DNA of 63,988 bases, filler included, from Hausera hauseri (lineage: Eukaryota): the NCBI GenBank assembly GCA_046269625.1. It is 11 parts of 11 records of this genome, joined end to end, with 100 filler letters (N's around TTAATTAATTAA, not from the genome) between each part and the next. Parts side by side here need not be neighbours in the genome. Positions count along the whole stretch, not along the records: positions 59,994 to 63,988 come from JBJURY010832414.1; 10 more parts are not named here. One strand, written 5' to 3'. Shown here piece after piece: positions 18,650 through 63,988 of this stretch. The notes below the pieces were generated by a model. That model did not search any database. It was not told the origin of the DNA and saw nothing but the letters and a program-made list of their open reading frames with translations. How positions within the stretch are numbered: position 1 is the stretch's first letter; the number at the start of each line of letters is the position of its first letter. Position numbers and translations under genes: made by a program.

Positions 18650-18915
18650 ATGAAAATGTCTTAACCAGATATCTTGGCATCATTCAAGGATGTTTTTGCT
18701 GTAGAATATTTTAGTACTGGGAAAGTGTGTACAATTGAAGAACATACAAAAGAGAAGAGTGGAGGCAAAGTTTGTGTATATCATGTAAAGTAAATAAGGT
18801 AGATACGGTATTGCTAATGTGCGGCCATCTGGTTGTATGCCAGATATGCTCAAAGTTAAGTCATTGTCCGGAGTGTAAATGCGCTGTAACTGAAAGTGTG
18901 CATATTTACTATTAA
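18650..18915 (+). pseudogene. Small C3HC4 RING-finger (IAP/Mdm2-type) gene, probably Polinton accessory
   Basis: CV(frameshift)SCKVNKVDTVLLMCGHLVVCQICSKLSHCPECKCAVTESVHIYY* at 18773-18915. It converges on the pPolB stop and is absent from the ORF track. Confidence 0.75.
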
Positions 18916-19740: not shown

Positions 19741-20699
19741 AAGCAACAATTTCTTAACTTTCGATCCAGGAGGACATTTATTAATTGGAGCTAGAGGCAA
19801 TTGGTCCAACTTTTCATGTTTGTCAGCCGGAATCCTTAATTCAACTCAATCGCTAAGCCTCGTTTTTCTCTAACAGAGTCAATAAAGGGTAATTGCTCAA
19901 TCAGACTATTTAATTTTTCTATATCATAAATACAAGTCAAATTCGCAAATGTCGAAGTTTGAGATAAANNNNNNNNNNNNNNNNNNNNNNNNNNNNNNNN
20001 NNNNNNNNNNNNTTAATTAATTAANNNNNNNNNNNNNNNNNNNNNNNNNNNNNNNNNNNNNNNNNNNNGTGGATGTCGTGACAGGTGCTGTTATTCATGG
20101 TATTGAAGATGACTTACGAAATTCATGTGGAGACGATTTTAACAATAGGACAAACTCCAGAAACCTCATACATGTCTAGTAATCCCGTCATAGAATTTGT
20201 CTTCTTCTTTGTTGAAAACAAATTTCTCTGCTCTTCTGTCTTACTGAATGAAGATTTCGAGAACGATGACTACTGTATTCACTCGACAAGCATTTTGGTG
20301 AGGACACGAGATGTATCCGTTATCGCAGCACTATATCGCCCTTCGTAGAAAAGGAATGATTAAAACAATATAGATAAAACAATAAATCGCAACCAATGAA
20401 CATTGTTTAGTGCCTATTCGGTTTTATTATGTATCAGTCGTTGTGTACCATCAATGAACTTTTCCTTGCTGTGGGTGGTAAATGTCACTGCGTGCCTTAC
20501 GTGATTGATTTGTGCTTAGCTGTTGAGCGGCATTTTCTGATAGAAGTTTGTGAGATTATGTGGTTCAGTAGGTGTAGCTAATGGAGGTGAAGGAAGTGGT
20601 GATGACGAAAGAGGACAAATGATTGCTGCAGCTACACAAAGTCGTTTAGAAAATCTGAAGACGGAATGGAAGAAGTAAGAGCTGAGTTGGAATTGGAGG

Positions 20700-24573: not shown

Positions 24574-24941
24574 TCGTCACTTTTCGACCGAATTTTGCTT
24601 CTAAGTTGCATACATAATAACTTTGTTCATTCCCATCTTTCTGTCTCCAACCTAATTCGATTCCAGAAGTCTTGTAGTTCCATTCCTCCGATTATTTCTG
24701 GTAATATTTCTGTCACTACTATGGAAGTTACGCGCTTCTGTACACCCTTGAGTTCCACATTTACGGATAGTTCATCCATGCAGTCTAGGGGGCTACCATT
24801 TGCACGACGGAGCGTGATATCTGATTTCTCCAGCTGAACATNNNNNNNNNNNNNNNNNNNNNNNNNNNNNNNNNNNNNNNNNNNNTTAATTAATTAANNN
24901 NNNNNNNNNNNNNNNNNNNNNNNNNNNNNNNNNNNNNNNNN

Positions 24942-29049: not shown

Positions 29050-30378
29050 CCTTTCCCACAATATTTTCCAAATAAAACAGAAAGAATGATCCTTTCTCAT
29101 AAGGCACCCTCGAGAACGCATCGTCGGGATCAAGACCGACAAGATGCGGATTCAATTTGCAGAACTCGTGACCCGGTCCGTGAATATCATTGAATGCATC
29201 CAACTAATCCAATGGAAAATAATTCGACAGGCCATAGATCTACTCACCGATTCCTGCAATTCAGCCAGACCACCTTTAATATGGAAATGTCGATAATCCG
29301 TTGAGTTAACATGGGCCTCCAGAATCAACCTCTCAACGTAATTCGTATGACCCTCGTTGACCCAGAAATGATCCCAATTGCTGTTCGTCACCAAATTTCC
29401 CGTCCATGAATGTGCCATTTCGTGGGCAAGAACGTGAACCTGAGACCGATCGCCACTGATTAGACATGGCGTGACAAACGTCAGACACGGATTTTCCATA
29501 CCACCGTACGGGAATGATGGTGGCAACACTAAAACATCGTAAACACCCCATTCGTACGGTCCACAAATCGACTCGGCAATGCTCAAAATGCTTTCCATTT
29601 CGGCAAATTCCCACGCAGCTGCTTCGACCATTTCTGGCTCACTCCAAACTGTACAACGCGGGCCAACATTGATTCCTTTCAAATTACCACAGACAATGGC
29701 GATCAGATATGATGGAACGGGGATCTTCTGTAAAAATGAGTAAGCCATGTGATCTTTGCAGTCATTTTCTTCTAATTTAACGGCACTCATTAGAACTTTA
29801 ACGTTTTTTGGTGCTTCTACTCGAGCTGTAAACGGAGCCTTTACCGATGGTGTGTCTTGACATGGAAGGAGACTTCTTGCATGAACGGCCTGACATTGAC
29901 TGAATAAATACGGCTCCTTTCCACCTAAGGTCATCGATGGTTTTAACCACTGCAGAGCAGTACAACCACTGGTTGTCGAATAGACGATTTTCACCAAGAA
30001 TCTGAACAACCACCATAAAACAACCACCAGAATTAAATAAAATTACTTTTCCTTTTTTAACATTATCGGAATTTCAATGCAACTCCAAATGTCGCCGGTT
30101 TTGCTCACGAATGGAACTTTGTTTCCATCGACAGTTACTTCTTCAATATTCAATTTATTAGCGTCCAAAATCTAAATAAATTATTAAAAAGGCATAAAAT
30201 TAATATCTGTTAAATTTACCAGAACATCGGCTTTAGAATTCAGAGTTCGAATTTCATGCTCGACAAATCCGCTTAATGTTTCGGAAGCGAAATCAACTTT
30301 CCAATTAAAATGAGACTTCTCGGTAACAAAGTCTTCAGCGTTTGCATATGACGTTGGATCGTTCTTAGATAACTCCAT
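29050..30378 (-). CDS. LTA4H: Leukotriene A4 hydrolase-like M1 aminopeptidase, 4 exons, C-terminal domain not found
   Basis: Exons 30378-30220, 30171-30047, 30001-29248, 29203-29050 with GT-AG introns of 48, 45 and 44 nt. Motifs: [42 protein letters not shown]...WVNEG, VPYEKG. Confidence 0.9.
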
Positions 30379-30880: not shown

Positions 30881-31935
30881 TCGTAATTCAGTTTGCATTC
30901 ATTCAATATTATTTCTCTATATAAGTTTCTTATTTCTTGTCGAACGTAGTTAATCAAGTAATCTATTTTGTTATCGAAATATTGCGTTAATTTGATATCT
31001 TTTCTATCTATTTTAATTTTTGCTTAGGATACCTCTCTCGATGAGAGATATAGTCCTTTGTAATTGGTCTTAAACATTTCTTCATTACATTTATTGGTCG
31101 CCCCATAATTTTAAAACGCATCGTCTCTTCAGGGTTCTGTGAATACACTACCGTTGCTACTTCCGTCATTTTTACTTCTTTGACCCCTTCTCTATAGGTT
31201 GTTGTTTCTTTCTCGGCCGTTTTTCCTATTGTCTTATTAAATTTCCCTTCCTTTAATAGTGTCAAATGGCATCTATTTGAAGATGTTTCCCATGTCATTT
31301 TTGATTCTCCGGTATCACATTCACCGCTCTCATATTCGCATTCGCTCATTATTGTCATGAGTCTTGTTTGTGAATTGAATAATTCTTCGTATTCTTTTAA
31401 CTGGACCTGGTAGTCCTCGATTGCACCGTTCTTGGAGCATTCGTTCCTCCGACATCGTAATCTACCCATTTACAAGTACCTTCCATTGTTTTATCTATTC
31501 TTCCTGCTCGAAAAATTCTGGTATATTTTATCTTTCCTCGTACAGCTGGGATTTGAGCATTCTGTATAGTTATGATCCCGATTTTAAAAGCGTCTTGGCA
31601 TTCAGCTCGTGATATTATTATTGGCTCAAAAGGGGTCGTCGGTTCAATAATGGCCGAATTTCCTGAATAATATGCACAATTAAATAAAAAGAATGACTTC
31701 TTCACGTAGCACTCTCTTATCTTGACTTTTATAAATTCTGACTCCTGATACACCTAATATCAAGGACCACTGGTTGTTGTCAATTGTTTTGGGTCCGCTT
31801 CGGGGCATTTTTCTAAATCTATTAGCGAATACTTTTGTCCCTCTTTTGGTTTCGAACAATCATAAGCCACCATTCCCATCGCTTTAGGCATGCATAATGA
31901 TGCTTTCAGTAATATTTGTAGTATTTCCATAAATG
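30881..31935 (-). pseudogene. env: Chuvirus-type (class III, gB-like) envelope glycoprotein N-terminal ectodomain
   Basis: Hydrophobic signal, then VAYDC...YSLIDLEKCP...VYQESEF..VKIRECYVK..F.FNC...ISRAECQ...GTCK...CEYESGEC...W....C.L.L..G. I recognise this Cys spacing from chuvirus glycoproteins and their retrotransposon-captured homologs. Confidence 0.72.
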
Positions 31936-32219
31936 ACATTCCACCCAGACCTTGTTTATTACTGGTTGGTTGGGTTGTGGTTGGTCTTTCCGGTGTTTCC
32001 CTTTCTAATCTTAACCTACCGTTCATCAGACTAGGTATCCATCCACCTCTGCATTGTACCCAACTTCCTAAAGTATCACGCAGGATCTTAACGGTTACTT
32101 TTATATTACGCTCTATTTCCTCCAAATTCTGTTTGGTAATTAATCACTATTACTTTATATATTAAATAGGCCACCGCCGTAACTGCCTTTTACCGAGTAA
32201 TCCCTGTAGCGAACATCTT

Positions 32220-33035
32220 CTATAATATGTCCTGTTCGTGGAGTTCGTTAATTCGTTCTTCATTAATATTTTCGTAAAATTGTCTACTAATTCTCAACAT
32301 GTTATTCCTTAATGTCTGAAACAATTCATGTGGAATAGTTACCTGCATATCGAATGACGCAAATGACGTATGAAGTTTTGCTAATAACGTTCTCAATAGT
32401 GGATCTATATCCACTGATTCCGGTGCCGTTTCTGTTCCTGCTAATAGTAATCGTCGTACAATTTCCTCATTCCTATCCTTTCTATTTCGAATGTCACTTA
32501 TCTTTGTTCCTTTTGGCCTTCCTTTACTCCGTGCTTCTGTTTGTACCGTAACATCCTGAGTATCAGCTAACAACTGTTCTTTCCCTCCTTGGGGTTCCTG
32601 GGGTTCTACTTCTCTTATTATGTTAGCTATTGTTTCTTCCGCCTTCAAATCGGGGCGTATTTCGGTTATAGTGATGATATTGTAATTTTCACTTCGGCAC
32701 CCAATCCTTAATAATTGATCATAACCGTATAATGTTCGGCCAAAGAAACTTAACCCATAAACCTTTTCTTAATAAAATGGCTCTAATTCTTCAATCTTTT
32801 CCCTTAATGTCAAAACATCATCCATTTCATTCATTCTAATGATCCTTATGTCCTGATTTCTTTCCTTTAATGTTATTCTTACTGTCTCGTTCCGTTTCTT
32901 CTTACCTTCGGCTGTCTTGGCTAATATAGTTCTTGCTATTTCTCGTATTGGGCTACTATCATGGGCTAATAGCAACAATTGAAATAGAATCTCATTAATC
33001 TTAACTACTGTTACCTTATTATCTATTAATTTCAA
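32220..33035 (-). pseudogene. Accessory region with ubiquitin-like domain (one in-frame TAA at 32769-32771)
   Basis: ORFs 32769-33035 and 32220-32648 are in the same frame: VRITLKE...DDVLTLREKIEELE...YGLSFFGRTLYGYDQLLRIGCRSENYNIITIT. Confidence 0.65.
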
Positions 33036-33326
33036 TATTGCAGTTGTAGCTTAATTAACGTCTCTTATATTCTCAGAGTTTATAGCAACTACTGCCTAAA
33101 TAATATCATCTTCGGCATCCAAATCTATCTCTATATCCTGCATTACCTGTTCAATGACAGTTTCATCAAATATTTTTGTTGATGGGTTTTCTTCCTCTGG
33201 TGTTAACTCACTAGTGTTGACTTTCTTTCGTCCCCTTTTTCTTTCTATATCACTTTTTTCTATCGACGTTTCCCTTGATTCTGCTTTTATTATTTTCTTA
33301 TTACCCTTCTTTCTCCCTTGTCTAGT

Positions 33327-34400
33327 TTATCCTTCTTTCGGCTTCTCCTCTAATACATAAATACTATTTTCTCTTAGTCTTTTCTGTTGGATTTTGTAAT
33401 CTTTTAACTCCATTGCTAACTGAGTCCTCATGCGTTGCAACAGTACGTTATCAACGTAATTTACCTTTTCTTTCTTTTTATCTTTCTTATTATCTTCGTG
33501 TTCACTTTCCTCATCTTTATCGGAAGACTCCTCTGATGTAGCTGATGTGTAATTCTGTTTCTTCTCTCTCTTTTCATCTTTCGTCCTTGTAGATTCTTTC
33601 TTGCGTGATCTACAAGTTTTTGCTATATGGCCATATTTGTTACAATTAAAACATTTTAACCTACTCTCTGAATCTATACTTGGCAACGAACGGCCGTCTT
33701 TGGTGCAATGCTTCTTTGACTTATCCCCGTCTTTTTTTAACTTGAATCTTACCTTCTTTTCTACATCGGATTAAGCCTCTGTAGCTGACGTTTGCGAGAA
33801 GCTTCGATTTTTATTGTATCTCTGGTACCTTTGTGTACTATTGTTTCTTCGTTTGTAATTGTTTGTATTATCTTTTGACTTTGTCCATTTATACAATTCG
33901 GCGTCCCGTTCAGCTTTTCGAGCCTTCCTAATTGCCTCTTGAAAAGTGGAGGGGTCGGCATGCAATATAATACTTCTTAACTTTCCTTCCAACCCATATT
34001 AAAACTGAGCCAACAACGCATTATTTCGTATTACTGCATCATGATAAGCCCTCGCGGCTAACTTTGGCAGTGCAAATACGACGTCCTGAACTGTCTCGCC
34101 TTTTCGTTGCCTCCTTCGTATAAACCCCTCTATCCTTCCTTTTCCTGAAGGATCAACTAGGAACTTTTGAGGTAACTTATCTTTGACAGTCTTCCAGTCC
34201 ATATTATCTTCTTCTGGCATCTGGCAATAGATTGTTAATGCAGTTCTTTTCAGATGAAGAGGTAACCTCTCCATTCGTTGTTGGTCATTCCATCCGAAAC
34301 TCTTGGAATATACCTCATATTTCATGAGGAAATCTTGTACGTCTTTTTGTCCTAAAAACTTCTTCATGGGCAGGGTGAAGTCAGCTTTTGACTGTATCAC
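33327..34400 (-). pseudogene. gag: Retrotransposon Gag plus CCHC zinc knuckle
   Basis: KFLGQKDVQDFLMKYE...LPLHLKRTAL...RRQRKGETVQD...FQEAIRKARKAE...CFNCNKYGHIAKTC. Confidence 0.88.
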
Positions 34401-34582
34401 CTGTTCTACATTATGTTCATTTCGGGCAATTCAGTATTCCTTTTCTGTACTTAAATTGGCTATAAACTCTAACCAAAATAGTAAATTATTGTCCGAATCT
34501 ACTTTACACGGTGTCCCTTTTCTAGTCGTAATCTTAACGGTTTATTCGGCTACTATCCAAAGGTTTCTTGATTCGTTTTAGA

Positions 34583-34600
34583 TCCCCGGTCACGGCACCA
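34583..34600 (-). promoter_or_regulatory. Primer-binding site, tRNA-His type
   Basis: TGGTGCCGTGAC.. lies two bases after an LTR-terminal CA and is complementary to the conserved tRNA-His 3' end (..GUCACGGCACCA). Confidence 0.8.
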
Positions 34601-35571: not shown

Positions 35572-38500
35572 GTGCAACAGCAGGATCAGCAGAAGCAGCA
35601 ACAGCAAGAGGAACAGATACAACAGGAACCCGACATTAATGTCAAATACGATCTAAACAGATATTACGTGGACATAAAAGCCACCATGTCGGTGGCAAAA
35701 ACAACAACGCAATTGAGACATGTTCCGCAAAATGTGCGCAACCAGTTGGAATCTGAAGTGGAGAAATTCCAACACCACCACTACCAACACCACAGCAAAG
35801 TGCAATTGAAGGTGACAGGAAACAATGGTACCTGTCACATCGAGCTGTACCTTATGTCAATAATTTTTTTGTCGACATCGGCGAAGAGCTCTATGAGAAA
35901 ATCGCCAGCTACACGGAAAAGTGTAGTGGATGACGAATTCTACGAATTGTCACCTTAGGCTTATCATAACAAAGTCAAGTGACATAATATATTTGTCCGG
36001 ACGATCATGCATACTGACACTTGCAGCTCTAAAGCAGTTTCTGGCGGTAGTGAATCTAAAAAATACTAACGATGAATATTGTTTTGTTTACCGTATTTTG
36101 GCGGTATTGAAATATGACGAAGTGGAGAGACATAATGCATCTCGTCCAAAACGATATCGGAAATATTTTTCCGAATTGGATTTCGATGAATGCTGGATGC
36201 CGATGAAACTGAAATTCATTCCGGCTTTTGAACGGCGTAATCCGACACTGGCAATCAATGTGTACCGGTACAACACAACTGTAGAAATACCGGCGGATAA
36301 ATAAATTTATAAAAATCCACACGTGGATATAATCTATCGAAATCGGAACCTAAATGGCCGCTCGGTAAATTTGTTGCTACTGGAACAAAAAGAAAAGTAC
36401 CATTACGTTGCAGTGACAAATCTGGACAGAGTACTAAATATGGAGCATGACCATTTCCTCCAAAAACGGAAACAGTATAAACGGTGTCTTGTATATCTTC
36501 ATGGATTGAGGTCGGAAACAACATAGGAGAAACATGTGACTCTGTGCAGACAAAATTTTTCAGGAACCACAATGTATGTCATGCCCGTCAAACAAGAACT
36601 CAGGTTAACTGACTGGTCAAAAACAGACAGTCCGGCATATGTAGTATATGCCGATATCGAAGCTACCTTACCACAGCACAACATATATGACCAAAAACAT
36701 GTTCCAATCGCCATCGGTATGTTGGTTGTCCCAATAAAAGCTCCAGGCCGTCAACCTCAGTATTGTGTTTTCCACGGATGGAATTGTGTACGCGATTTCT
36801 TGCAGCAGTTGCAAACCACAGTGGAAACTGAAATCGCACCCTGGTACAGTAGAAATAGCAAAAAACCCTTGATGTGGACAGATGAGGATAAACGCCTGAC
36901 GTTTACAATCACAGATGAATGTTACCTGTGTCACAGAATATTACCGTTTGATGCACAGAAATTGTTCATACCAGATCACGATCATTTTATCGGTCTATAT
37001 CTCGGAGCAGCATGTAATTCATGCAATGTGGCAAGGCGTGTGCGGCCATTCCTGTCGGTGGTATTTCATAACTTCAGGGGTTATGATTATCACCATATTT
37101 TGAAATTAGCAATAAACGGATTTCCGCACTGGGAACTATCCATAATTCCGACTACGATGGAGAAATACCTGTCACTGTCTGCTCATATAAACCGGTTCCA
37201 TGTACGCTTTCTTGATTCATTGCAATTTCTCAATGAATCATTGACAAAGCGGGTAAATGCCTTGCCAGATGTGCCGATAGCACTGACGTAGTTCCCCGCA
37301 CATATTGCACGCAGTAAAGGCATATTTTCACATGACTTTGCAGCATCGTATGAGCAACTGCGGACAGCAGATGATTTACCTCCGCGATGGACAGGTATCG
37401 CAGAAGATGAATACCGGAAAACATAGAGGAGTTGGACAGAACTCAGCTGTAGAAACATGTTGGATTACATGCTTCAGTACCTTAAACTGGACGTGTACTT
37501 ATGAGCTGATGTATTCCAGGAATTTCGGGCGAAAGCGTTGGCTGAATGTAGGCTGGAGCCACTTAACTTTTATTCCATACCGGGAATGAGTTAGGCGTCA
37601 GCTTTAATTTCACTGGATCGAGACATTAAGCTGCTGCAAGAACCGGAAATGTACCGGCTGTTTTATGTTGGTATTCGCGGCGGCGTGACATTTGTCAACA
37701 AGCATCAGGTCCGTGTTACCGATACCACATCACTGTTGTATATTTATATTAATAACCTGTATGGCTGGGCGCTTTCGCAACCCTTACCGTACGGTTCATT
37801 CAAATGGGTTGTCGACAGACAAGATCTGGACGACATAATGGTCAACCTACCACGAGCAGACATGGCAGGCATAGTCGGATACCTGATGGAGGTCGATGGC
37901 GTTGTACTAGATGAGCTGCACGACGTTTTTGACGATTTACCGGTCGCACCATTTAACCAATGTCCGCCAGGCTCAAAAGTGAAAAAACTGCTAATGACAC
38001 ATGAACCAAAGCTGAATTACCTGGTCTGTTGGCGTCTCCTACAGTTCTACATGCAGCTTGGTGTACGTGTCACACAGCTGCATCGTGCAATCACGTTCAT
38101 GAGTAAGGCGCAGTTTCGGCGGTCAATGCACATTGCCGATGGATTAGTTGCGGTGCTGTTAAACCGGGAAGAAGTCGTTCTGGACCGACCAAGTTACATG
38201 GGACAAGTGTTATTGGACCTGAACAAGTTGCAGATGTATGAGCTACAATATCCCGATTTGGCACGTTACCGGCAAATGTTTGACGGCTGTGACATAAGTA
38301 TAATTGCCGGTGACACAGACAGTTTTTTCCAGGAAGTTTTTTGTCAATCGCAAACAGCTACTGCAGCAAATGCAGTCAGATGGATTACTGGAACACGTCT
38401 AACTATCCACTGTATCATCTGTTGCACAGCAGCGCGATCACCAACAAAATCGGCTGCTTCAAGGATGAAAGTGAAAGTCGTGTCCAGTATCGGTAATAGA

Positions 38501-38787
38501 TATTCCTACGCTCAAATTGCTACAGTCTTCTGACGGACTGTGGATCGAAACTGCGGGCAAAAGGAGTCCAGCTGAGACAGACGGAAATCGACCACGGTGA
38601 TTATCGCCGTATCTATAAAGAAGGAGGAGAATCAAAGGCTGTTGTATTACAAACGATCATCCGATCGATTGAGCACCAGCTGTATACGGTGACCAACACA
38701 AAAGTCGCTTTATCACGCAATGATGATAAGCGTAAGTGGGTGGGGCGAAATTAGAGTTGGGCGTACGGACATTGGCGTTTGGAATAA
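35572..38787 (+). pseudogene. Polinton/adintovirus protein-primed DNA polymerase B, near full length, frameshifted
   Basis: NLKNTNDEYCF, YADIEA (ExoI), endonuclease VII-like C..C...DHDH..G.YLGAACNSCN, FHNFRGYD (ExoII), RFLDSLQF, YLKLDV, NNLYGWALSQPLP (motif A), AGDTDSF (motif C), DDKR...AYGHW. Confidence 0.92.
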
Positions 38788-47638: not shown

Positions 47639-50600
47639 TGTAATTATTCATAAATTGATGAATTGATGTTTTCTAAGTGGATTTTATGTTTCAGTGGTTT
47701 CAATTGATGGAATTGTTGCAGTTAGGTTTATTGGCCGAAGGACTTATTTTCATTTTTTGTTTATATTCTTGGAATAACTACAAAACCATTGGTAAAACTC
47801 TAAAATCCGACTTGAATTCCACAATAAAAAGAACAGGAATTACACTGAACATTGGTAGTCCATGTATCATGTTGGTTTTGAACGACAAGGTAGAGCTAAT
47901 GAGTTAAGAGACGAACTCAAGCATACGACCGACTTTGACAAAACTAAAATTTAAATAGTCACTACAATATTCCCCGTGGCAAGCTGTGAACTGTAAGGAT
48001 AAACGGGAAGATTAAACAAACACAAAACGAAACAGTGTGGACTAACTATGTGGTCTTATGTAACAGATTTGTGGTTTGGCTATTCAGTTTTGGTATGAAC
48101 CAGACGTTGTATACCTTCGATGTTTCTCTCTACTGTACTTACTGAAAGTGACAGTTTTGTGATATGTCTTTGCTTTTGTCTCTGGTTGTTGAGGTGTTTT
48201 GAGAGGAAAGATGTCACATTCTGTCGCGTTGAGCGTAGTGTCTTGCTGAGGCAAAATAGACGAAGGAAAATAAGTAACTGAAAATGAATATTTGAAATTG
48301 TCGAAGGGAGTTCCCAAAGATAAATAGTTGGAGGAGGAATAATAACGGGTGAAAAAACGGGAGGAGGAAGTGGAGTAGGGTTAGGGATGCGGGAACAAAA
48401 ACAGGAACAGGAGAAAATGAAGTAGGAGTGGGGACAGGAGCAGAAACAGAAAGAAATGCAGGAGTGAGAAAATTTGCCGAAGTTTTAGTTGGAGATGTGC
48501 CGTCTACAAAAAAGGCAAGTTTCACATTATTTATGTTGACTGCTATTTCCTTTCCTTCTTTGAGAATTACAGCGTTGTGGGAATGTAGTTGAATTAGCTT
48601 GTAAGGCCCTAGACATTGCGGTTAAAAACCAAACGGCGTTTGGTTCCGTAGCCAAACGAACTTTGCAGAATACAAATCGTCGAATAAATACGTTTTATTG
48701 TTGTGTAATGTTCTACAGAACGAGTCTTTACTGACAACTACGAAATGGTCCTGTGCTCCTCTGATCTTTTCATCTGTAGGCGTATTATCTAGGGCGCTTA
48801 ATTCGAACAAGGAACGAACCGGTGTTCCAAATAAGGCTTCGGTAGGTGAGCATCCTGTGGAAGTGGACGGAGTGTTTTGCCAGCCGAGAAGGACGAACGG
48901 TAGAAGTGTGGTCCAATTGGTGTTTGACTGCGCAAGAATTCGAAGTGATGTTTTCAAGATTCGGTGGAAACGTTCGAGCAGGCCATTTGATTGGGGATGA
49001 TAGGGTGTAGTATGAATATGATTTATACCTAATAGGTTGACTAAAGATTTGAACAGATTTGATTCGAATTGAGAACCTTGATCCGAGATGATGTAACGAG
49101 GAGATCCGAATCTACTAATCCATATACTGATGAAAGTATCAGCTATCGTGTCAGTATTTGTGCTCCCTAGTGGAATGGCTTCTGGCCATCGTGAGGCGCG
49201 GTCCATCAAGGTCAGAAAAAATTGATGGCTGTTGTCTATTGGGAGAGGACCGACGATATCAATATGTACAGTTTCAAAGCGTGATGTGCATGAAAAATTG
49301 TATAATGGAGGTTTTAGGTGTTTTATTGTTTTATATTTCTGACAAGGCACGCACTCTTTAACCCATGCTTGCACATCTGAATGCATTGTTGGCCACACTA
49401 CTTGTCGTTGAAGTAAGCGGAAAGTCGCTTTGGCACCAGGGTGGTGTAATGCTTGTACGTTATGAAATGCTTGTTTGTGTAAAGGTGGAGCAAGAATTAC
49501 CTTGGACTGTCCTGGCTTCGAGGTATCTAAGGCCACGCCATCTACTATCCAATGAGATTTAAACGATTTGAGAATATCTTGCGATGGCTGATTTTCACGG
49601 AGCTTTGACTGGGTGAAAATTGGCGAAAACTTGATGGAACCGACTGATTTGGATAAGAAATCAGCAACTAGGTTGTCGACACCCTAGATATGTTTGATGT
49701 CGAAGTTGAAAGTTGATAAATATGAAATTTGCCGTTCTTGTAGAGTGGAACGATGCTTCATCGTCATTATATTAATCAATGGCTTATGATCAGTCTGTAT
49801 AACAAAATGGCGTGCCGTAAGTAAATGCAAAAAATGTGTTAAAGCAATGACTATTGCTAACAGTTCCCGATCGAAAGTCGAGTGTTTTGTTTCTGGTTGA
49901 GTTAATTTTCTAGAAAAGAATTCTAGAGACTGATTTTCTCCTTTGTATAGCTGATGTAGTACAGCTTTTACTGCGATGTTTGATGCATCTGTAGTTAAAA
50001 TTAACTCAGCGTCAGGTTTAGGGAATGCAAGTATTTTCACAGTCTTTAATCCTTCACGTAACCTGTCAAAATCATTCACTATTTGTGGCGTCCACATGAT
50101 TTTCTGATATTTCTTTTCTCCACTTAAGTGAGCGAAAGATGCTATGATTTCCGAACAGTACGGGATATACTTGTGGATGAAATGTAAGGTACCAAGGAAA
50201 CTGCGCATTTCTGTGGTTGTCTTAGGTAGTTGGATATTTTTAAGAGTCTCAACTCGATCAGGTTGAGGTGAATGGCCATCTGGTGAGATAATATATCCGA
50301 AGAAATTAACACGTTTTTTAAAGAAATTACATTTCGCAAAATTGATTTGTAGATTAAACTGTTTAAGACGTTTGAAGATAGATCGTAGATGTTCTTCGTT
50401 TTGTTTAATTGACGACGAGGCAACCAAGATGTCGTCAATATAGGGATGTGCAAAAGTGAAGTCTAAAAGTATTGAATATATGTGTCTTTGAAACATCTGC
50501 GCAGCATTGCGAAGACCGAAAGGCATATACAAGTACTCATAAAGTCCAAAAGGCGTAGCGACTGATGTTTCCTCGATGTCTTCCGGTGCGACAGGAATTT

Positions 50601-53130
50601 GGTAGTAAGCCTTAGCTAAATCGATCGTCGAATAAACTGAGATAGTATTAAGTTGATGTAATGTCTTTGACTAATGGTAGTGGGTATGTGTCCATTGTTG
50701 TTAACGTATTAAGTTGACGATAATCGCAACATGGTCGGAAAGATCCATCTCTTTTGTACCTGTAGGGGTGAAGAACATAGTGATTTAGATCTACGGACGA
50801 TACCCGATTGTTCAAGTTCCATAAATTCAGCTTCTACTGCCTGTCTGCGTTGCGGTGACAATGGACGGACCTTTTTTCTAATTGGCCTTTGATGTCTTGT
50901 AATTATATGGTGGTAAATGCTATTTACTGGAGTGAAATTCCTATCTTTCTGGAGTATCCGAGGACAAAAGGTATGAACGAATTGTTGTAGATTTGCGGGT
51001 AGTTGTTGGAATGTTGTAACTTATAATGAACCGAGATTGCTAGCAGTACTTGGTATATGATTAGTTGTTGATGAGGAATCATGTGGAGCGTGAAGTAGGA
51101 TGGCCTGGTCCGGAACCGTGTTTGAGTAAGTGTTAGTGTTCAGTGATTTTACAGAAAATACCAGATTGTTATTGGGATTAGAACGAAATACCGAGTGTTA
51201 TAAAATAGATAGCTTATTTAACGTGGATTGTGTTGTCGTTGTGATGCTGTCTATTTTTGCATTAAGGTTTGCAAATGTATTTGCTTTCAGACAGCGTCGT
51301 TTACAATCAACTGGTAAATTGTAATGTGAAAGAAAATCTGAGCCAAGTGTTGCAGTCTGGACGTTATAGACTGTAAACGTCCAATGAAATGATGAGGGGA
51401 AATTTTGTACAGTGAAATCAAGTTTGCAGGTTCCGGCGACAAGGAGACCGTGACCAGATGCAGTGTATAATGGTTATATTCTAGATGAAGTATGTTGAAA
51501 CGAAAAAGAAAATGGAAGTAATGATATCGCTGCACCAGTATCAATGAGAAAATCTATTGATTGGATGTTAGGATTGGAGATAGTAGTTTTTAATGTAAAA
51601 ACAGCAAATGAAACATGTCGGCGAAAACAATTAGATAGATTGCCATTGCCAGGATCTGCCGAGGATACTGGCGGCGAAATCCGTTTTTTGGATTGGTGAA
51701 CTAGAACGATTGCTATTAGAGATGTTGGTACGTCTATCGATGGAATAGTTTTTTTAGTTTTGAATGTACAGCCGGTAATACAACTCCTAGCATTAGGACC
51801 GAATTTTGAATGATAGACGCAAATCATATTACTTGAATCTAGATTTGGCGAATAATATTTACACCATAAGCAACATTTATTTGCGTTGTTACTAAATTTG
51901 GTGTGGTAATAGCATACGAAAGACCTCGTAGGTGACGGTGTTCGACTTCTAGCAGGAGAACGTGTTCGATTAGATGGAGGCACATTACGACGCTGTAAAG
52001 AAAGATTATTCAATTTATCATTGATAGAGTTGATGGTGTGATGGAGTGCCGCATTTTCGGCGCGTAATTCGTTTAACTGCTGTTCGAGTGAAACATTGTT
52101 GGTAGTAACTGCTGCAGAAATAACTGGTTGAGTGTGTACGTTCAAAACCTCATAGGTTTTATCCGCCAGTTCGGCTAATTTATCTAATGTTGTCGATTCT
52201 TCAACGACAGTAAGGCCCTAATTCGTATGGGCAATGCATTCAGGAAGTAGCGTCGCAAAAGATGGGCGTTATGTTGTTTCGTCACGCCAAGTGTTTGAAG
52301 TTGCACGAGTGACGTTCTGAGAAAATCAGATGGCTTCTGCTCCCCATTGCATTGTCGTTGAAGAAGCTGTGAATTATTGAGTCCATAGATGGTTCCGTAA
52401 GTTTCAAAACGGCGTCGTAAAGATGCGTGTATGGATCAGGTTTCTGGAAGATATCGAGCAAATCATGAATTTCCGTTTTTACAGTTGTTGGTAAAAGACA
52501 GCAGGTTATGGGCCTTAGTTACCGGATGAGTGATGTTGTTGAATTGCAGCCAGAGTTTGTGGAATCTAAGCCACATTTTATTAGACTGGTTGTGGTCAAT
52601 AAAATATTCTGTGCACTGAGAAGTGTGTTTGACTGTCGAGGTTGTAGAAGCATAACTACTGAAATGAGATGGCGTAATGACGGTCGGTGGTTTTGGATGA
52701 AAAGGAAAATGTGGTGATTTTGGAGTATTTTTATCAGTGGTGTCGATGGTGGGTGAAGAATTCATCCCGCCACGTATGCGAATGTGTATGTTAATGATGA
52801 TGCAATGCGTTGAAGGTACGGAAAGGTTACAAAGGTTGCCATTAGTTACTGGTAGATTATTGTATGTAAGATAGAAGTCGGAGATGTTGGCGATGTGTAC
52901 CATGTAGTTGTATAGATAGGATGCATCAACCGAATTTGCTATTCGGTGTGTTAGTAAATGGTAATTGTTTAGAAAGAATAAGAAAGAAATAGTTGGTGTA
53001 AACTCAAATGGTTGGTGTGGTGACGAAACACACCATTGCGTGGGACTCGTTGACTAAACACAGAAAGTTGAGTGGCTGATCATTCTATAGTTTGTTTGTA
53101 ACTCAAGAGTATGAGATGACTGGACCACTT
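47639..53130 (-). mobile_element. Ty3/Gypsy family A copy 2, nearly complete internal region (gag-PR-RT-RH-INT), degraded
   Basis: FLIDTGAAISLLP, CCDYRQLN, MPFGLRNAAQMFQR, YIDDILV, LTTDAS, HIDIVGPLP...ISDQGSQF...HPQSNGLLERFH. LTR end ACTACA at 47966 adjoins a PPT-like tract. The outer LTR edge and the 5' LTR are uncertain. Confidence 0.95.
51474..53083 (-). pseudogene. gag: Gag-protease with N-terminal ubiquitin-like leader
   Basis: Frame starts at ATG 53083 (one TAG), reads ...IHIRIRGG-MNSSP..., then Gag (KPSDFLR, LDKLAELADK), two CxYHxKF..NA..C...C motifs and the DTGA protease. Confidence 0.8.
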
Positions 53131-54116: not shown

Positions 54117-54690
54117 CTCGTCGTGTCTCTCCAAAAGGGTTGCCGGTGAACTGACTTTCTTTACAACCGGTTCTTCGTCTTCATTGAAATTTAATGGCGG
54201 AATTTTAGACACATTATACGTTTTGCGTTTTGTGGCCTTCGAGCTTGCTGGAGTCTTTTTGATAATAAGATTCTTTCATTTTTTTGTGACAAATTAGTAA
54301 TCAAATCAAATAAATCATCTTCAGATATTTGCTTTGTTTTGAACTGGGTAGCCTGTTTAATTTTCGATTCACCAAGTTCTTTACCAACAACCAAATACGT
54401 CGTTTTACCGCTAACTGTTTTCGTTACTTTTCCACCATGTTTCTGCATCAGCGTTTCTGCTGTGTCTCGTTCGATACTTTTAAAAACTATTAATGACGAA
54501 TGTCAATCCAAGTAGACAATTCGGGTCGCCGTCCGGAATTTCTTTCGTTCCCAACGCTTCGTGATTCGGCCGATTCAGATACGCATAATAAGCGGCTTTG
54601 CTCGCCGATTTTGGTGAAGACATTGAGGTACCGGATGTTATCGGTGTTTTTACTGGAGTGTATTTCTTTTCTTCAACTTTTGTGCCTGCT
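54117..54690 (-). pseudogene. RFC1: Replication factor C subunit 1 BRCT-domain fragment
   Basis: AYYAYLNRPNHEALGTKEIPDGDPNCLLGLTFVI / SIERDTAETLMQKHGGKVTKTVSGKTTYLVVG...ISEDDLFDLI; frameshifted. Confidence 0.85.
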
Positions 54691-56960
54691 GTTTCATTTG
54701 TTGCTATCTTAACGTCAGATTTCGGTGCAAAAATCGGCAATTCGACGTTATCTAACATTTGATAAATTTCGTTGATTTCAAAATTATCGCTGATGTTATA
54801 AATAAATGCTCGGATTCTGGCTGCAGAATTCACAAAATTGAAATGGTCGGAGTTGTGTTTATTGAATTCTAGTGGAGTTGGACATCGCTTAGTGCCAGAC
54901 CAAAATGGCATACCTCGCGATGTGATAGCGTCAAATGGGAAATTGTGAAGCAGCTGTTTAATATTATTAGAAAATTGCTGTTCCCATAAAATCCGACTCC
55001 AATGAACAGTCTTTGAAAGACGTCGGTGTATTATACAAAGCATTGACAGCATTTTCGAAGTTTTCTGTAGACTGTGAAATGTTAAAAGACTTAATAAATT
55101 CTTCCGTTATGGAAAAATTGTTGCGCAGCAATCGACGGCTGAGTAAACAACCACTCAAACATGTCCCTTGACCATTGGATAGTATGATCGATTGTGTAGG
55201 GGAAATTCTTCAATGTACAAACTGGAATTGACTTTACCGGTGGATCTTGTGATGAACTGTACGATTCAGTCAAATGAGGAATGACAACTTGGACATTGCC
55301 CTTTGTTCCTAAAGTGCCCGACTCGAGCAACGGTTTTTGATAGAAAACACACCGTCTGTCCATGTACATTCGGACATCGATGTTATCCAATGCATTTGCA
55401 ACAATGTCAATACTGTTGAAAAATGAATCGTCAAAGAAAGACTCGGTTTCTTTACCAACTTTCAAATCGAGTGCTTGAATGTTAATACTCGGGTTGATAT
55501 TTTTGGCGGCTTTTGCCGCAGCCAACGATTTCAATTTACCGATATCCGACGGTCGGAAAAAAAACTGTCGATTAAGATTGGACTTTTCTATATTATCCAT
55601 ATCGGTAATTATAACTTCACCATTGCCCTGACCCTCGAACACCGAACCAACACTCATTAGAGCAAAGCTTTTCAACAATTCACAACCAATTGCACCTGAC
55701 CCGACTATAACCAATTTTAAATTGGAAAGTTTTTGTTGAAAATCAACGCCGAAAACGGTAATCTGGCCTCCATATCTTTCGTATGATTTGTACTAAACTT
55801 GAGTGGATTTGAATTCATTAGCAATGTTTTTTGACTCGCTACTGTCAGGTAAACATTCCAGTGCGTCGAAATAAAAGAACTGTTTAATCGGAAAGAATTT
55901 TGATGAAGTTGCTTTCAATACTTCCTGTGCTGTAATACCACCAATTACAGCCTGGATCGGCGCTAGATTTCCATTAGTATAACTGAAAAATGACGAAGCA
56001 AGTTCTTCATTCAACTCGATATTTGGAAACGTTGTTTCACGGATGTCCTTCAACTGTTTTAAGAAACTTTGAAAATCATTCGGATATACTTTATCCACCA
56101 AAGAAAACAATGTGCAATTGTTCGACTCTTTCAATTTTGGCAAAATCACTCATAACAAATTAAAGTGATTTGTAAGCTTCTTCAAAAGACTTGAACGATT
56201 CAATCTTCGGCATTTTCACTTGCATGCAAATACCACCATGACTGTATGATGAGAACTTCGACGTATCACCAATTTTGAAACTTACTGGGCCCTCAACTCT
56301 AGTTTCTCGTGGTTCACAATTATTCAATTCGATCATTCCATTAAATTCGGAAAACGTCACATAGTCACCATCTTCAAAACCGTGTCTTGTTTCTTCTAAA
56401 CAAAGAACGACCCCTTCTCCATCGCGCGAAACACTCTGAATCGTAACAGATAACGGTTCTTCACCAGTAGCATCATTAATTAAATGTTCGGTACCGAAAT
56501 CACAAAAAACTTGACCGAAAAGCCCAGCAGTTCGTGAAATAATCAGCTTTACATTATTACTATGGCAAAATTTTCATAAGTTTATGCACTCTTCGTGAGT
56601 TGAATTCGTCAGAACGACAAGTGTAAATCGTTTAAGAAAATTCAATGTTAAATCTTCTGAGCTTTGGTTCACAATAACATATGAATTGAGTTCGCGTAAT
56701 TTTACCAGACAAGCTTCAGCTCGATTCTTTCCAATATCAGACTTTTTGAAATAAAATTGTGACGAAAGATCATTTGACGAAACCAATTCTTTATCATGAA
56801 GCATAACGGATTTTACACCAGCCAAAATTACATTTTTCGCTATTTCTACACCTAGACCACCAAGTCCGGATATTAAAATATTAGAATTGGCAATATTCAA
56901 CATGCCTTCCTTTCCAATAACATAATTGCCGGCTGTATAAATTTTCGTCAATATTATAAC
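54691..56960 (-). pseudogene. UBA1: Ubiquitin-activating enzyme E1, lacking C-terminal part, frameshifted, no introns seen
   Basis: [85 protein letters not shown] (catalytic Cys), PFWSGTKRCP. Confidence 0.93.
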
Positions 56961-56999
56961 CATTATGAGTTTCACTATGCGAATTCCAATTATTCGTAT

Positions 57000-57670: not shown

Positions 57671-59893
57671 TGTAGTTGTATTGCCACAGGATTTTTATCT
57701 CGAACTGGAATCCAGAAATTCGAATGATTGTAATCCCGATGAGAAACACTGCATGACGAAGCAACACTACTAGACTGCATCATTCCTCGGCAAAACAGTA
57801 ATCAACAACAAAAAATAAAAAACTTTACTAAAGTAGCATGTCACTTGCTAGGCTCAACATCACCTCCCCCCCAATGTGGCGAAGTGTGACTGTGAAGACA
57901 AAAGAAGTAGTACCGAACGTAGAACGAAATAGTTTGAGCTAACTATGTGGCTTTCGTATGTACAAGTCGTTGTATTCCATCAGTATTTAGCACTCTACTA
58001 TAAGTACTAAAAGTGACCGATTTGTATTTTTTGAGTTGTTAAATCTGACTGACAAGTTCGTGGAGGCAGAACTATGTCAGATGTCGTAGTTGAACTTGGT
58101 ATATTGTTCAGAGACGAAAAAGGGGCTGGAGGTAAAAATGTAGTAGAAAAAGGAGGAAAAATTGGGAGATTAGTGAAAGGAGTTGGAGGAGTAAATTCTA
58201 GTAACGGGGTAGGTGTAGAGTCAGGAGCAGAAACAGAAGGGAATGTAGGAGTCAGAAAATTTGTCAAAGTTTCGGTTGGAGAAGTGTCGTCTACAAAAAA
58301 GGCGGGTTTCACATTATTTATATAAACTGCTAATTGCTTTCCGTCTTTAAGAATGATAGCGTTGTGGGAATGTAGTTGAATTAGCTTATATGGCCCTAGA
58401 TACTGTGGTTGAAAACTAAACGGTGTTTGATTCCGTAGCCAAACAAACTTTGCAGAATACAAATCGTCGGGTAAATACGTTTCATTGTTATGTAGTATTC
58501 TATAGAACGAGTCTTTACTGACCGCGACGAAATGGTCCTGTGCTGCCCTGATCTTTTCGTCTGTAGGCATATTATCTAGGGCGGTCAATTCGAACAAGGA
58601 GCGAACAGGTGTTGCAAATAAGGCTTCGGTAGGCGAGCATCCTGTGGAAGTGGACGGAATGTTTCGCCAACCGAGCAGGACGAACGGTAAAAGTGTTGTC
58701 TAGTTGGTGTTTGACTGCGCAAGAATCCGAAGTGATGATTTGAAGGTTCGATGGAAACGTTCGAGCAGGCCATTTGATTGAGGATGGTAGGGTGTAGTAT
58801 AAATATGATTTATACCTAATCGGTTGACTAAAGATTTGAACAGATTTGATTCAAATTGAGAACCTTGATCCGAGATGATGTATCGAGGGGATCCGAATCT
58901 ACTAATCCACGTACGAATAAAAGTATCAGCTATCGTGTCAGTATTTGTGCTCCGTAGTGGAATGGCTTCCGGCCATCGTGAGGCACGGTCCATCATGGTT
59001 AGAGTAAATTGGTGGCCGTTGTCTATTGGGAGAGGACCAACGATATCAATATGCACAGTTTCAAAGTGTGAAGTGCATGGAAAATGACATAATGGAGGTT
59101 TTAGTTGTTTTATTGTTTTATACTTCTGACAAGGCACGCACTCTTTAACCCATGCTTGCACATCTGAACGCATGGTTGGCCACACTACTTGTCGTTAAAG
59201 TAAGCGGAAAGTCGCTTTGGCACCAGAATGGTGTAATGCATGTACGTTATTAAATGCATGTTTGTGTAGAGATGGAGCAAGAATTACCTTGGACTGTCCT
59301 GGCTTCGAGGTATCTAAGGCCACGCCATCGAATATCTGATGAGATTTGAACGATTTGAGGATATCTTGCGATGGCTGATTTTTCTGGAGTTTTGCCTGGG
59401 TGAAAAATGGCGAAAAGTTGTTGGAACCGACTAATCTGGATAAGAAATCGGCAACTAGGTTGTCCACGTCCTCGATATGTTTTATATCAAAGTTGAAAGT
59501 TGATAAATATAAAATTTGCCGTTCTTGTCGAGTGGAAGGATGCTTCATTGTCATTATATTAATCAACGGCTTGTGACCAGTCTGTATGACAAAATGGCAT
59601 GCCGTAAGTAAATGCGAAAAATGTCTTAAAGCGAGGACTATTGCTAACAGTTCTCGGTCGAAAGTTGAGTATCTTGTTTCTGGTGGAGTTAATTTTCTAG
59701 AAAAGAATTCAGGAGGCTGATTTTCACCTTTGTATAGCTGGTGTAGTACAGCTCCTACTGCAGTGTTTGATGCATTTGTAGTTAAAATTAACTCAGCGTC
59801 GGGTTTAGGGAATGCTAGTATTTCCACAGTCTTTAGTCCTTCGCGTAACTTGTCGAAATCATTGACCAGTTGTGGCGTCCACATGATTTTCTG
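57671..59893 (-). mobile_element. Ty3/Gypsy family A copy 3 (RNase H, integrase, PPT, 3' LTR)
   Basis: ORFs 59195-59884, 58700-59185 and 58007-58597 are closely similar to copy 2. PPT TCACCTCCCCCCC at 57860-57872; putative LTR TGTAG...CAACA at 57671-57859. Confidence 0.92.
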
Positions 59894-59993
59894 NNNNNNN
59901 NNNNNNNNNNNNNNNNNNNNNNNNNNNNNNNNNNNNNTTAATTAATTAANNNNNNNNNNNNNNNNNNNNNNNNNNNNNNNNNNNNNNNNNNNN

Positions 59994-62900
59994 CTTATCG
60001 CAGTCGTAAACAGTGACAGCACCTATGTGCTTTATTAGCATCATTAAGGTAAGTAAGCTGATTAACCAATTGGGTTCATTTTTCCGGTGGGTATTATCCG
60101 TCGTCGTTAAGTTATGTAACATATCTTGGAGCCTATTGCTATTTCCTGATTGTTTGTCTTCTTCCTTATCTAATAATCTCGACCAATTAATTTCTCAGGG
60201 TAATTTTCTTGCCACTCTTTGTGCTAAGCTTGTAGCTCTATTAATTTCATTTTTCTGATTAGGGTTTATTTTGATAGCTAAGTACAATAATACCTTAATT
60301 CTTCAATAGTATTTTCCACCATGATATTTTCGATTACCGATTCATCGGTTAAGTTATTTTTTGATAATTTAAAACGTGAACTTCTCATCATCCTATCTGC
60401 ATTGAATATGGCTTTTTCTTTATTATCTAATATATCGCTTGCGAGGCTTGAATAATTCACAATACGTATTAAATTATTTATTAATTCGTTTAATTCTTCG
60501 TCGTCTGTACTGAAAATAGGAATCGACATCTGCCTCAGTTCTCTAATCAATTCTCCATTATAGTCAGTTTCTTCTTGTGTCTTCGTAGGTCTACCTACTG
60601 GGTCTTTCTGTTTTGGGGCATTGGTTATTGTTTCACTTAGTGGCACTAAATTCTTATCATATTGTTTCCTATCTTCACCGGTTTGTAAGTACTCGAAATA
60701 CATTGCAGCATCTCGGACTCCCATGATTTGTCCTACGCATTGTTCTGCCTTTGCCTTACGCGTAGCTTCTTCTTTAGTCTGTTCATCAGCTATTATTATT
60801 ATTATTCGATTTCTTTCGTCGGGGATAATCCCAACGTCTATTAACTGTTCAAAATCGTCTAGTATTCTACCTCTAAAATAGAATCTGTAGTTTAACTCGT
60901 TTGTTTCACCATTATATATTAACCATTTTCTTACGTCCCTTACATATGAATAAGTAGTTAATTCACATTCTTTTTCATCCATCCACTCGGATGATACCAT
61001 TACCTTTATCGTTACTTCAGTTTACCCCTCAAGATTTTAGCTTATTTCCTTATCAAAAGTTTCGTCAACGCGCTGTAAATTGTGTTCGCACTAGATAATT
61101 TAGTCAATGTCGGAATAAGTTGTCTTAAATTACTTTTAGTAATGTTTACGTTAATTAGTTCAATTAAATCCTTTTCAGTTAGCTCTGAATATAGGAGCAT
61201 CTCCACATTGAATCTCCTATTTTGCGGATACGTTTCTATTCCATTTAGCTGTACCGGAGTCACAGGATTCTCGGTTGTTAATGCATCTAAGTACGCATAC
61301 CATTCCGGTTCATTTTCAAAATCTGGAAGTCCATAGTCTACAAGTGCTGTATTCGCCCTTTGTACATTCTCTCGAATTTCTTTCAACCTTGGCTGTATTA
61401 CGTTCATCTCTGTTGTCCAGAATCCTAATCCGTTTTCACAAGCATACTGAATCATTTTCAGTAATTCACCTCATTCATCAGAACTGATGGATCTCTTTTG
61501 GTGATAATTAGCTAGTTCAAGAATTACATCTCTTTGCCATCTTTGTACAAATTCGCGCTTATTTTTGATTTCAGATTTGATAAAAACATATTTGTTCCGG
61601 TAGATTTCCAGCTCTCTTACTAATTCGTCTAACCTCCGTGCTCTTTGTTTGATTCTAATGCACATTTCTTCGACTTCTCGTAGCTTGGGTATCAATTGCC
61701 TCATATTCTCATCATTAATCTTTTTCATTTCTACTAATAGGAAAGCTAACTCATACATTTCATTTATGACTTTTGAGTCGGGATCTATTGCATCGATCAA
61801 TTTCTTTACGAACATATATTCTTCAAAACTAAGATGTTGGTCATTTCTTACTTTGTCAACTCGGTATGGCAATTCTGATCTGTTCCTATCATCCATTTCC
61901 TGTTGTTTGTGCAAGAATCTTATTGCTTACTCTAAAGCTGCTCTATGTTCCGGATAGATATCTCAGGTTTCGATATCTTGGACTGAAATTCCGTTGATAA
62001 ATTTATCTGTTAGATGCTGAACTCCTTCTAGTCGGGCGTTTCTTAATCTTGGGTAAAAGTCGCATGTCGTATTTTGCTTTTCTGTAAAATTTGTTTCTTC
62101 GATCATTTTATAAATCTCTTTCAGTATCGTCGTTTCTTTCTGCTTATTCATAAAATTTAATCCTCGTAATGCTTCAAATTGCGTCGGAATGTCTATTTCG
62201 GCTTGTATTGTATCTAAGTTCCGTGCATTTTTTAATTGCTTTTTAACAGATGGTTTGCTTTCTAGAAATTCTTTCCTACGGTCTTCTACTAATTTACTTA
62301 GTCTCATTATTAATTTGGACCATTCCGACAATTGATTGGCGATTATTGGCTTTGACAATATAGTCTTGTCTAGTATCTTATATGCATCCGGTAGTTCGTC
62401 ATCTGGACCCTTTATGAAATTCATAATCTGGCCGACATAATCGAACTCATCCTTATATTTGTCATATTCTATGATACAAGCTTTTATTACGTATTTGGTT
62501 TCTTCATTATTTAGAAACATAATTTGGTTTCTCAAACTACAGATTGGTGTTCGTTTTTCATTTTCCATTTTGATACGATTCTCCAGGTTCGTATATTGTT
62601 TGGGTGCAGCGAAAGCGATTTTTATCGTTTCCATTAAAGGAGGAATGTCTACTTGGTCTATGCCCAATATTTCTAAATCGATAGCACTTTGAATTGCTAA
62701 CCGGTTTTTCTCTAAGCCGGTTAATCATTGCACAGCAAATTTCATACATCATACGTTCTAAATTTCGGACTACTCTTTTTAGTTTTGGGTTTGCTTCTAC
62801 GGTGGACATTAGGGTCTGAACTTTAGTGACCTTTACATCAACAATATCTTTATTCTTGCTACATCCTTCCGAAAATTCGACTCTATTTTTAATCCATGAT

Positions 62901-63988
62901 TCTAATTCACACTTCCTTTTCAGCAATGTTTTACGCGGTACTTCTTAGGTTTGTCCTAAGTCGATTGCTTTGTCGAGCTTTTCTTTACTACATAATTTTA
63001 AACTTTTACATAGCCTCTCAACAAACTGTTGCACTTTACCGGATATATCTACTTGTTTGCTAATCTGTTTAACCCTTTCCAAATTTCGTTATAATGTTCT
63101 GGATCGTGACATCTAATTCTTATTCTTTTCAATTCATCGTCATTTTTCCACTAACGTCGAACTTTCCATTTTCTCGGATCAAGGTCATCAATATTTCCTG
63201 TTTCTTCCTCACTAGTGAGAAGTTGAAAAATCTCGTTAATTTCATTGATCGACTCTGAAGATACTTTTACCTCGATGGGCATAAATGGACCACTTTTTGC
63301 TGTATTTAAGCTAGGCTCTATGTGGCTCTCTACAGTGATGTCGGTATTTCTTGTTTCTTCTATTTTCTCTGTAGTTACTTGCGAACGCGAACGACTTCTA
63401 CGTTTCGTTTTCAGTGAAGGACTACAGCCTCTGTGTTTCGTAATTTTAAGTATTAATGGCTCCATGAATTATTTTTTAGCAATATCCTCTTCAGTAGTCT
63501 TATTTACCTTTTCAACCGTGAACTCAGGTTCTGCATCTAAGTCGACTTCTGTCGAAATGCCTGGTTATATACTGTTTTATTAATTGTCGGAATACATTTT
63601 TTCCGTGTCATCTTAATTCGCTTAGGTGCGATTGCATACTCGTATTCAGTTTCTGGTTTTGCTAAATCATGATACACTTCTAACAGTCTTAGCTTCTCTC
63701 CGTACACTTTTCTGGCCGTCAAAATCTGTAGATTAGTAGTTTCGGGTTGAGCATCTAGAAATTTTCTCAAATCCTGTATGTCGATAATAGTACCTATGTC
63801 TCCGCGAACACCATATTTCGCTACTAAGTTCTCATTGACTTTAATCGTACTAGTCTTATTAGGTTCCGTAAATGAAATGCTCCGTGGGTTTGGACATGAC
63901 CGTACAATGTGTCCTTCGTTACCGCACGTAAAACAAACTAGATTTCCATTTCTGCCAACTCTTTGTAGACCGTCTTTGTTCACCGGTG
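59994..63988 (-). mobile_element. Gypsy-Gag element family B copy 2 (knuckle, helical region, ubiquitin-like domain, signal peptide and glycoprotein start)
   Basis: CFTCGNEGHIVRSC, colinear with 6192-9472, UBL at 60790-61009, and WLISLLTLMMLIKHIGAVTVYDCDK running into the gap. Confidence 0.85.

Follow-up and report, generated by a model that had tools for sequence, protein, structure and literature searches.

The DNA analysed here (the window) is a stretch of 63,988 nucleotides from Hausera hauseri, consisting of 11 contigs with 10 identical linkers between them. The last contig (59994–63988) carries on its minus strand a copy of a gag-containing element, termed family B, and its last 28 codons (60077–59994) encode a hydrophobic stretch, a signal-peptidase-type site (IGA/VT, the slash marking the predicted cut) and the motif VYDC. 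A second family B copy and a related element, family C, lie elsewhere in the window. The features are as follows.

63894–63935, minus strand: gag CCHC zinc knuckle (PF00098, E 3.7e-6); the remaining gag lies beyond the end of the window.
61022–63890, minus strand: helical or coiled-coil-like insert of ~970 codons, broken by stops and frame changes, with 76% nucleotide identity to the second copy.
60779–61021, minus strand: predicted ubiquitin-like (beta-grasp) domain, from an HMM, a PDB profile and an AF2 model.
60069–60600, minus strand: helical segment located where relatives have their BCL2-like domain, interrupted near 60300 by a frame change and at 60197–60195 by a TGA.
60033–60068, minus strand: predicted signal h-region WLISLLTLMMLI, best 12-residue Kyte-Doolittle mean 2.45 (relatives 0.77–3.61).
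60018–60032, minus strand: c-region KHIGA, with I at -3 and A at -1; signal peptidase is predicted to cut between 60018 and 60017.
59994–60017, minus strand: VTVYDCDK, the first 8 ectodomain residues of a putative gB-type, Monjiviricetes-like env, ended by the contig end.
59894–59993, no strand: contig linker of 100 bases, N44-TTAATTAATTAA-N44, one of 10 identical, outside the element.
5256–9472, plus strand (4057–9472 in a wider delimitation): second family B copy, found by blastn, with gag capsid, degenerate knuckle, helical insert and ubiquitin-like domain.
30886–34430, minus strand: family C, with gag, CCHC, ubiquitin-like domain, BCL2-like domain, signal (AMG/MV), AYDC and ~330 codons of gB-type env, from Pfam and comparison with the database protein P0003.

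The minus-strand frame 60299–59994 reads exactly as the sequence-only reading had quoted it, with the single TGA listed above and VYDCDK at the contig end, and the parallel that it drew with family C is confirmed by an equivalent junction at 31933–31850 (IGA/VTVYDC in family B, AMG/MVAYDC in family C). Its expectation that closing the gap at 59894–59993 would reveal the continuation of family B does not hold. The linkers appear to be artificial, since their 12-mer has stops in every one of the six frames, and the supposed gap is most likely a joiner between unrelated contigs. Across it lie RT-connection, RNase H and integrase sequences, 89.8% identical to the copy at 48422–50106 of a different, ordinary Ty3/gypsy element that has its own gag region. 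Reading family B across 59894–59993 was rejected because this is a linker, because the pol beyond it comes from another family and because env plus PR-RT would not fit into 100 bases. Three decayed copies of the ordinary Ty3/gypsy pol, 69–90% identical, are present at 2281–3956, 48422–51020 and 58007–59893 (minus strand).

A phmmer search with a family C piece recovered 55 database relatives. A word-indexed search with the family C piece found nothing, and the sensitivity of that index is therefore low. A junction profile of 28 ungapped columns (22 residues before the motif and 6 from the motif on) was built from 33 of the 55 relatives only, with no sequence of the window included; dropped were 9 lacking x[YF]DC, 2 having an internal motif only and 11 with fewer than 22 amino acids upstream. 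Family C served to choose these relatives and the motif to anchor them, and the ranking over the whole window is independent of the focus of the sequence-only reading. Among 123,969 six-frame segments the profile ranks family B first (27.5 bits) and family C second (26.7 bits), the next best reaching 4.1 bits. None of 60 shuffles attains the family B score (best 12.5 bits), and leave-one-out scores of the relatives span -10.8 to 45.1. Valine is the first motif residue in 4 of 40 relatives. The full env HMM matches family B at positions 7–31 of 622 with an iE of 0.049, and hhalign aligns the junction to env with a probability of 31% (E 5e-4), weak values that are expected for a piece of 25 residues. 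Pfam gives no match for the 102-residue family B piece, which covers only ~25 positions of PF24664. The profile ranking supports assignment of the stretch as a predicted signal sequence followed by the N-terminus of a gB-type (PF24664) env, of which 8 ectodomain residues are present.

The env of family C matches PF24664 with E 5.8e-16 over profile positions 4–163 (58 bits against a cut-off of 27), and no pol lies ahead of it. The relative P0003, a single protein of 1130 amino acids, covers gag through env collinearly with family C. In the ten long relatives examined, the 650 residues past the motif contain 15–18 cysteines, and a TM-like segment follows the motif by about 520–570 residues, so that the anticipated cysteine pattern and C-terminal TM helix are seen in relatives only, the family B contig stopping after its 8 ectodomain residues. 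Searches for family B relatives among longer proteins gave 0 matches at E 0.001 among 2069 candidates for ORF 60281–61021 and 0 at E 10 among 146 candidates for the junction piece, both weak negatives, and no family B sequence past VYDCDK was found in these homolog searches. Upstream of the family C gag, at 34600–34588 on the minus strand, a stretch starting with TGG resembles a tRNA primer-binding site.

The two family B copies are 76% identical in nucleotides over 63245–60631, and their mismatches by codon position (20/14/34%) indicate, at the level of sequence comparison, that they diverged under coding constraint. The gag of the second copy matches P0003 (E 3.8e-18), P0019 (5.7e-8) and the family C gag (1.3e-9). 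For the ~970-codon insert Pfam gives no family above cut-off, and in the open-frame family B pieces scanned there is no Pfam match to MATH, BIR or ankyrin; Atlas feature searches with family B pieces, including one 253-residue insert piece, also gave no match, a weak negative. With tblastn, contigs 2, 7 and 11 yield 0 pol matches at E 0.05 between gag and signal. No repeat that would mark an LTR was found for the 5' region of the second copy, and 3' ends are absent from the copies.

The ubiquitin-like domain is predicted with moderate confidence at 60779–61021. An HMM built from three hand-picked sequences scores 13.9 bits in family B, with 0 of 300 shuffles as high, and it outscores 300 of 300 shuffles in both family B copies and in family C. 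A PDB profile search returns ISG15 and ubiquilin as its top five matches (best E 0.049); a single-sequence PDB search returns unrelated matches only (E 0.62 or worse). One of five AF2 models has a pLDDT of 56 and beta-grasp topology. The Foldseek matches listed for the domain model are nearly all ubiquitin-like (best E 8.4e-4), and its best VIA match has a Z of 7.8, a value that the tool classes as common, with an rmsd of 2.5 over 79 residues. A single-sequence fold of 60281–61021 gave a pLDDT of 33 and no usable model. The number of codons from this domain to the motif is 289 in family B, 293 in family C, 303 in P0003, 288 in P0014 and 368 in P0007.

In family C a BCL2-like domain (31967–32537, minus strand) stands directly ahead of the signal, with BH1/BH2-like features and WVQCRGGW at 32062, and scores 67.8 bits. 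A BCL2-like profile of five sequences matches Bcl-xL (E 4.9e-5), and 5 of 21 relatives match Pfam Bcl-2 below cut-off between the ubiquitin-like domain and the signal (E 7.7e-5 to 0.012). The corresponding segment of family B scores 5.1 bits, a value reached by 21 of 300 shuffles, in a register that fits; the BH2 W...GGW motif is absent from 60069–60600, and hhalign gives no match of the helical segment to the BCL2-like domain. A GRP[KT] motif occurs at 60595 in family B, as at 32522 in family C.

The sequence-only reading placed the signal inside a longer protein. This holds for relatives, in which a gag-...-env(-pol) polyprotein is seen; these are predicted proteins, and one or more of them (P0016, which includes MRP-L47) appear to be chimeric. 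In 22 of the 40 relatives the motif is not reached before residue 81. P0003, P0007, P0019, P0040 and P0044 are each predicted to carry gag ahead of it in one protein; pol (PR-RT-RH-IN) follows env in P0006, P0017, P0044 and P0045, and P0044 has the complete layout gag-env-PR-RT-RH-IN. The family B copy itself cannot show an internal position: its signal comes after a switch of frame and a stop, and 37 codons ahead of the motif there is an in-frame Met (60122). The upstream ORF 60278–61021 is not in frame with 60299–59994, the switch falling near 60300, and the second copy ends before the signal and before these breaks. In 841 aligned codons the two copies have 6 and 7 stops, of which one is common to both; since the stops are mostly private to one copy, decay is the simplest reading of the breaks. 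The common one is TGA at 61473–61471 (minus strand) and TAA at 8624–8626 (plus strand), with conserved residues on both sides, and it is possibly either a read-through site or a coincidence. An alternative genetic code was rejected because all three stop types occur and one stop is shared. Programmed frameshifting near 60300 is unsupported: two slippery-like heptamers (60373 and 60362) lie upstream of the change in family B, and family C yielded none.

Four other explanations have to be weighed. The env might have its own ORF and a conventional N-terminal signal peptide, starting from the Met at 60122 or expressed from a spliced or subgenomic RNA, in which case signal peptidase would cut but nothing would be freed from a Gag precursor. 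The breaks ahead of the signal and the in-frame Met fit such an arrangement, as do the 18 of 40 predicted relatives that have the motif at residue 67 or earlier and the frame change that family C also has, ~90 codons before its motif. However, P0003, a close relative of family C, is continuous across that point, the family B copy is full of breaks that are mostly not shared, its spacing from ubiquitin-like domain to motif agrees with that of continuous relatives, and Burro ORF1 is described as continuous in the sections of PMC6431247 covered here; a separate ORF is thus improbable, although it is the likeliest of the four. Scarcely more improbable is programmed recoding, in which the stop common to both copies would be read through at low frequency, yielding more Gag than Ubl-env-pol while the signal would again be internal and host-cut. 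Chance alone would give about 0.05 stops in common (6x7/841), and conserved residues resume right after the stop, without a Met in the second copy. Yet this chance figure ignores codon mutability, only two copies are available, their stop codons differ, and the predicted downstream folds are weak and unlike each other (-15.0 and -13.8 kcal/mol).

The signal and VYDC could also be a remnant, family B having lost most of its env or being a non-autonomous derivative that is not enveloped. Nothing past 8 residues is seen, the BH2 motif is absent and no further env piece occurs outside family C in the window, but the sequence ends at a contig end and not at a stop or junction, and the family B junction scores as well as that of family C, which makes a remnant less probable still. 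That a hydrophobic run next to a motif of four letters is a chance likeness might be suspected from the 7 [AVGI][YF]DC matches across six frames and the weak sequence-search scores of the junction piece alone. The family B score stands far above both the next unrelated segment and the best shuffle, however, and the motif occupies its expected position relative to gag and the ubiquitin-like domain; chance resemblance is effectively refuted by the junction ranking and gene order.

Small residues at -1 and -3 of the cleavage site, the (-3,-1) rule, are the established signal peptidase pattern. When the cut is set two residues before xYDC, A, G, S, C or T at -1 together with a small or aliphatic residue at -3 is found in 35 of 40 relatives, against a background rate of 0.117; the count was taken over the 40 of 55 relatives having at least 10 residues upstream of the motif. 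Family B has the substrate features of signal peptidase I, namely its hydrophobic h-region and I-G-A at -3 to -1. Release by host signal peptidase is accordingly well supported as a prediction from the conserved pattern. The earlier proposal that this host enzyme frees the glycoprotein, with no element protease needed for the cut, agrees with the site pattern in both families and in most relatives, and cleavage itself remains a prediction. The protease of the element is encoded after env in 9 of 21 relatives scanned; such an element protease would be cytosolic and so presumably unable to reach a luminal site. In P0005, P0006, P0007, P0008 and P0040, env is apparently followed by at least two aspartyl-protease-like domains.

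The closest known systems include the giant gypsy-like elements Burro/GYPSM1 (Arkhipova & Yushenova, 2019; PMC6431247). As described in the parts of that article examined, planarian Burro has Ubi2/SUMO-like and BCL-2 domains and then an env with mononegavirus-like matches, in frame between gag and pol and ahead of PR-RT. Family B shares with it a Gag with CCHC, a long helical or Smc-like insert, a Ubi/SUMO-like domain, a BCL2 position and then the start of env, whereas MATH, BIR and ankyrin are undetected in its insert and it has one CCHC in place of 2–3; this comparison is by description and not by sequence, and the BCL2-likeness in family B is not significant. GAG-ENV-POL errantiviruses with an HSV/gB-type env, flanked by a signal peptide and a TM or by two TMs, are described from Platyhelminthes, Bryozoa and Nematoda (Chary & Hayashi, 2026; PMC13524379, in the parts examined). 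Family B resembles these in having gag with CCHC and then the start of env with no pol between, but they are intact with pol, whereas the family B copy lacks pol and any ectodomain beyond 8 residues. The family C ectodomain resembles, by eye only, six Schmidtea 'C1a' rows of the PMC13524379 supplement, the rows of which, in the part seen, start after the xYDC motif.

Gene order and flanking signal or TM segments are thus described in the examined parts of PMC6431247 and PMC13524379, and the gag-env-pol architecture itself is already published there; processing of the kind proposed here is not described in those parts. A keyword search of PMC6431247 found no discussion of a signal sequence for Burro, although published figures or the Burro sequences may already show one. 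Literature searches found no other paper on the processing of such an embedded env, and Sacco et al. (2022), on nematode elements, may cover it. The conserved signal-peptidase site two residues before xYDC offers a concrete answer to how an env located between Gag and Pol could reach the ER lumen.

The signal and xYDC N-terminus of families B and C are as in the Monjiviricetes fusion glycoproteins of PF24664; unlike in those viruses, the gene here lies within a retrotransposon, and in family B only the first ~25 positions are present. In flavivirus C-prM and hepacivirus core-E1 an internal signal follows a cytosolic capsid precursor and is cut by host signal peptidase, and the upstream protein is membrane-tethered. 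The proteins are unrelated to those of family B, and the analogy is one of working only.

The preferred reading, with a probability of roughly three in four, takes family B for a Ty3/gypsy LTR retrotransposon in decay, with the Burro-like gag-env-pol arrangement and an env whose signal is internal and host-cut. The observed part of this reading consists of the motif with its rank, the site pattern, the ubiquitin-like domain, the order of genes as far as the signal and the polyprotein layout seen in relatives. The word 'enveloped' used for it in the sequence-only reading is overstated and should read 'env-carrying lineage', enveloped particles being conjectural. The ancestral precursor would have comprised Gag, the large helical insert, a ubiquitin-like domain, probably a BCL2-derived helical domain, the signal and a gB-type fusion glycoprotein, in a frame presumably continuous across 60300–60195. 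By analogy with relatives, a full env would have followed the signal, and protease, RT, RNase H and integrase would have come after the env membrane anchor. The glycoprotein may have been captured from a Monjiviricetes-type virus together with its own signal peptide, which thereby turned internal. The precursor would be made in the cytosol and enter the ER membrane with its hydrophobic stretch, leaving Gag cytosolic; host signal peptidase would then cut after IGA, making VTVYDC the mature N-terminus in the lumen. In this topology the upstream product (Gag-insert-Ubl-BCL2-like) would stay tail-anchored through the remaining hydrophobic helix, and Pol would be back in the cytosol after the env anchor.

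A more tentative extension, which we consider possible yet doubtful, is that a single hydrophobic helix serves gag-env-pol elements in three ways: it would be the signal peptide of the captured virus, it would anchor the BCL2-like domain upstream by its tail, in the arrangement of cellular Bcl-2 proteins, and it would tether Gag to the membrane of its own Env. This would amount to a flavivirus-like host-cut polyprotein in an LTR retrotransposon. Family B would then be a separate lineage in which no relatives are detected for the ~970-codon insert, the BCL2 fold has degenerated and the Gag:Env ratio is possibly set by a read-through stop. With family B the gag-env-pol elements gain a divergent lineage; the copy being dead and truncated, its own value is modest.

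Other elements and genes occur in the window. An apparently intronless, stop-interrupted ubiquitin E1 copy (UBA1-like, with ThiF and SCCH) at 54191–56999 on the minus strand, followed by a BRCT-domain piece, adjoins a Ty3/gypsy element. An M1 aminopeptidase piece at 29152–30042 (minus strand) is presumably leukotriene A4 hydrolase-like, and a 661-codon ORF at 24886–26871 (minus strand) contains a DBF zinc finger (PF07535, E 2.9e-12). A DDE_Tnp_1_7 transposase fragment at 11334–11639 (plus strand) is one that we take to be piggyBac-like. Pieces resembling protein-primed DNA polymerase B, with an endonuclease VII-like motif, lie at 35927–38533 (plus strand) and 18912–19846 (minus strand); their contigs match each other, and the pieces suggest Polinton/Maverick-type elements.
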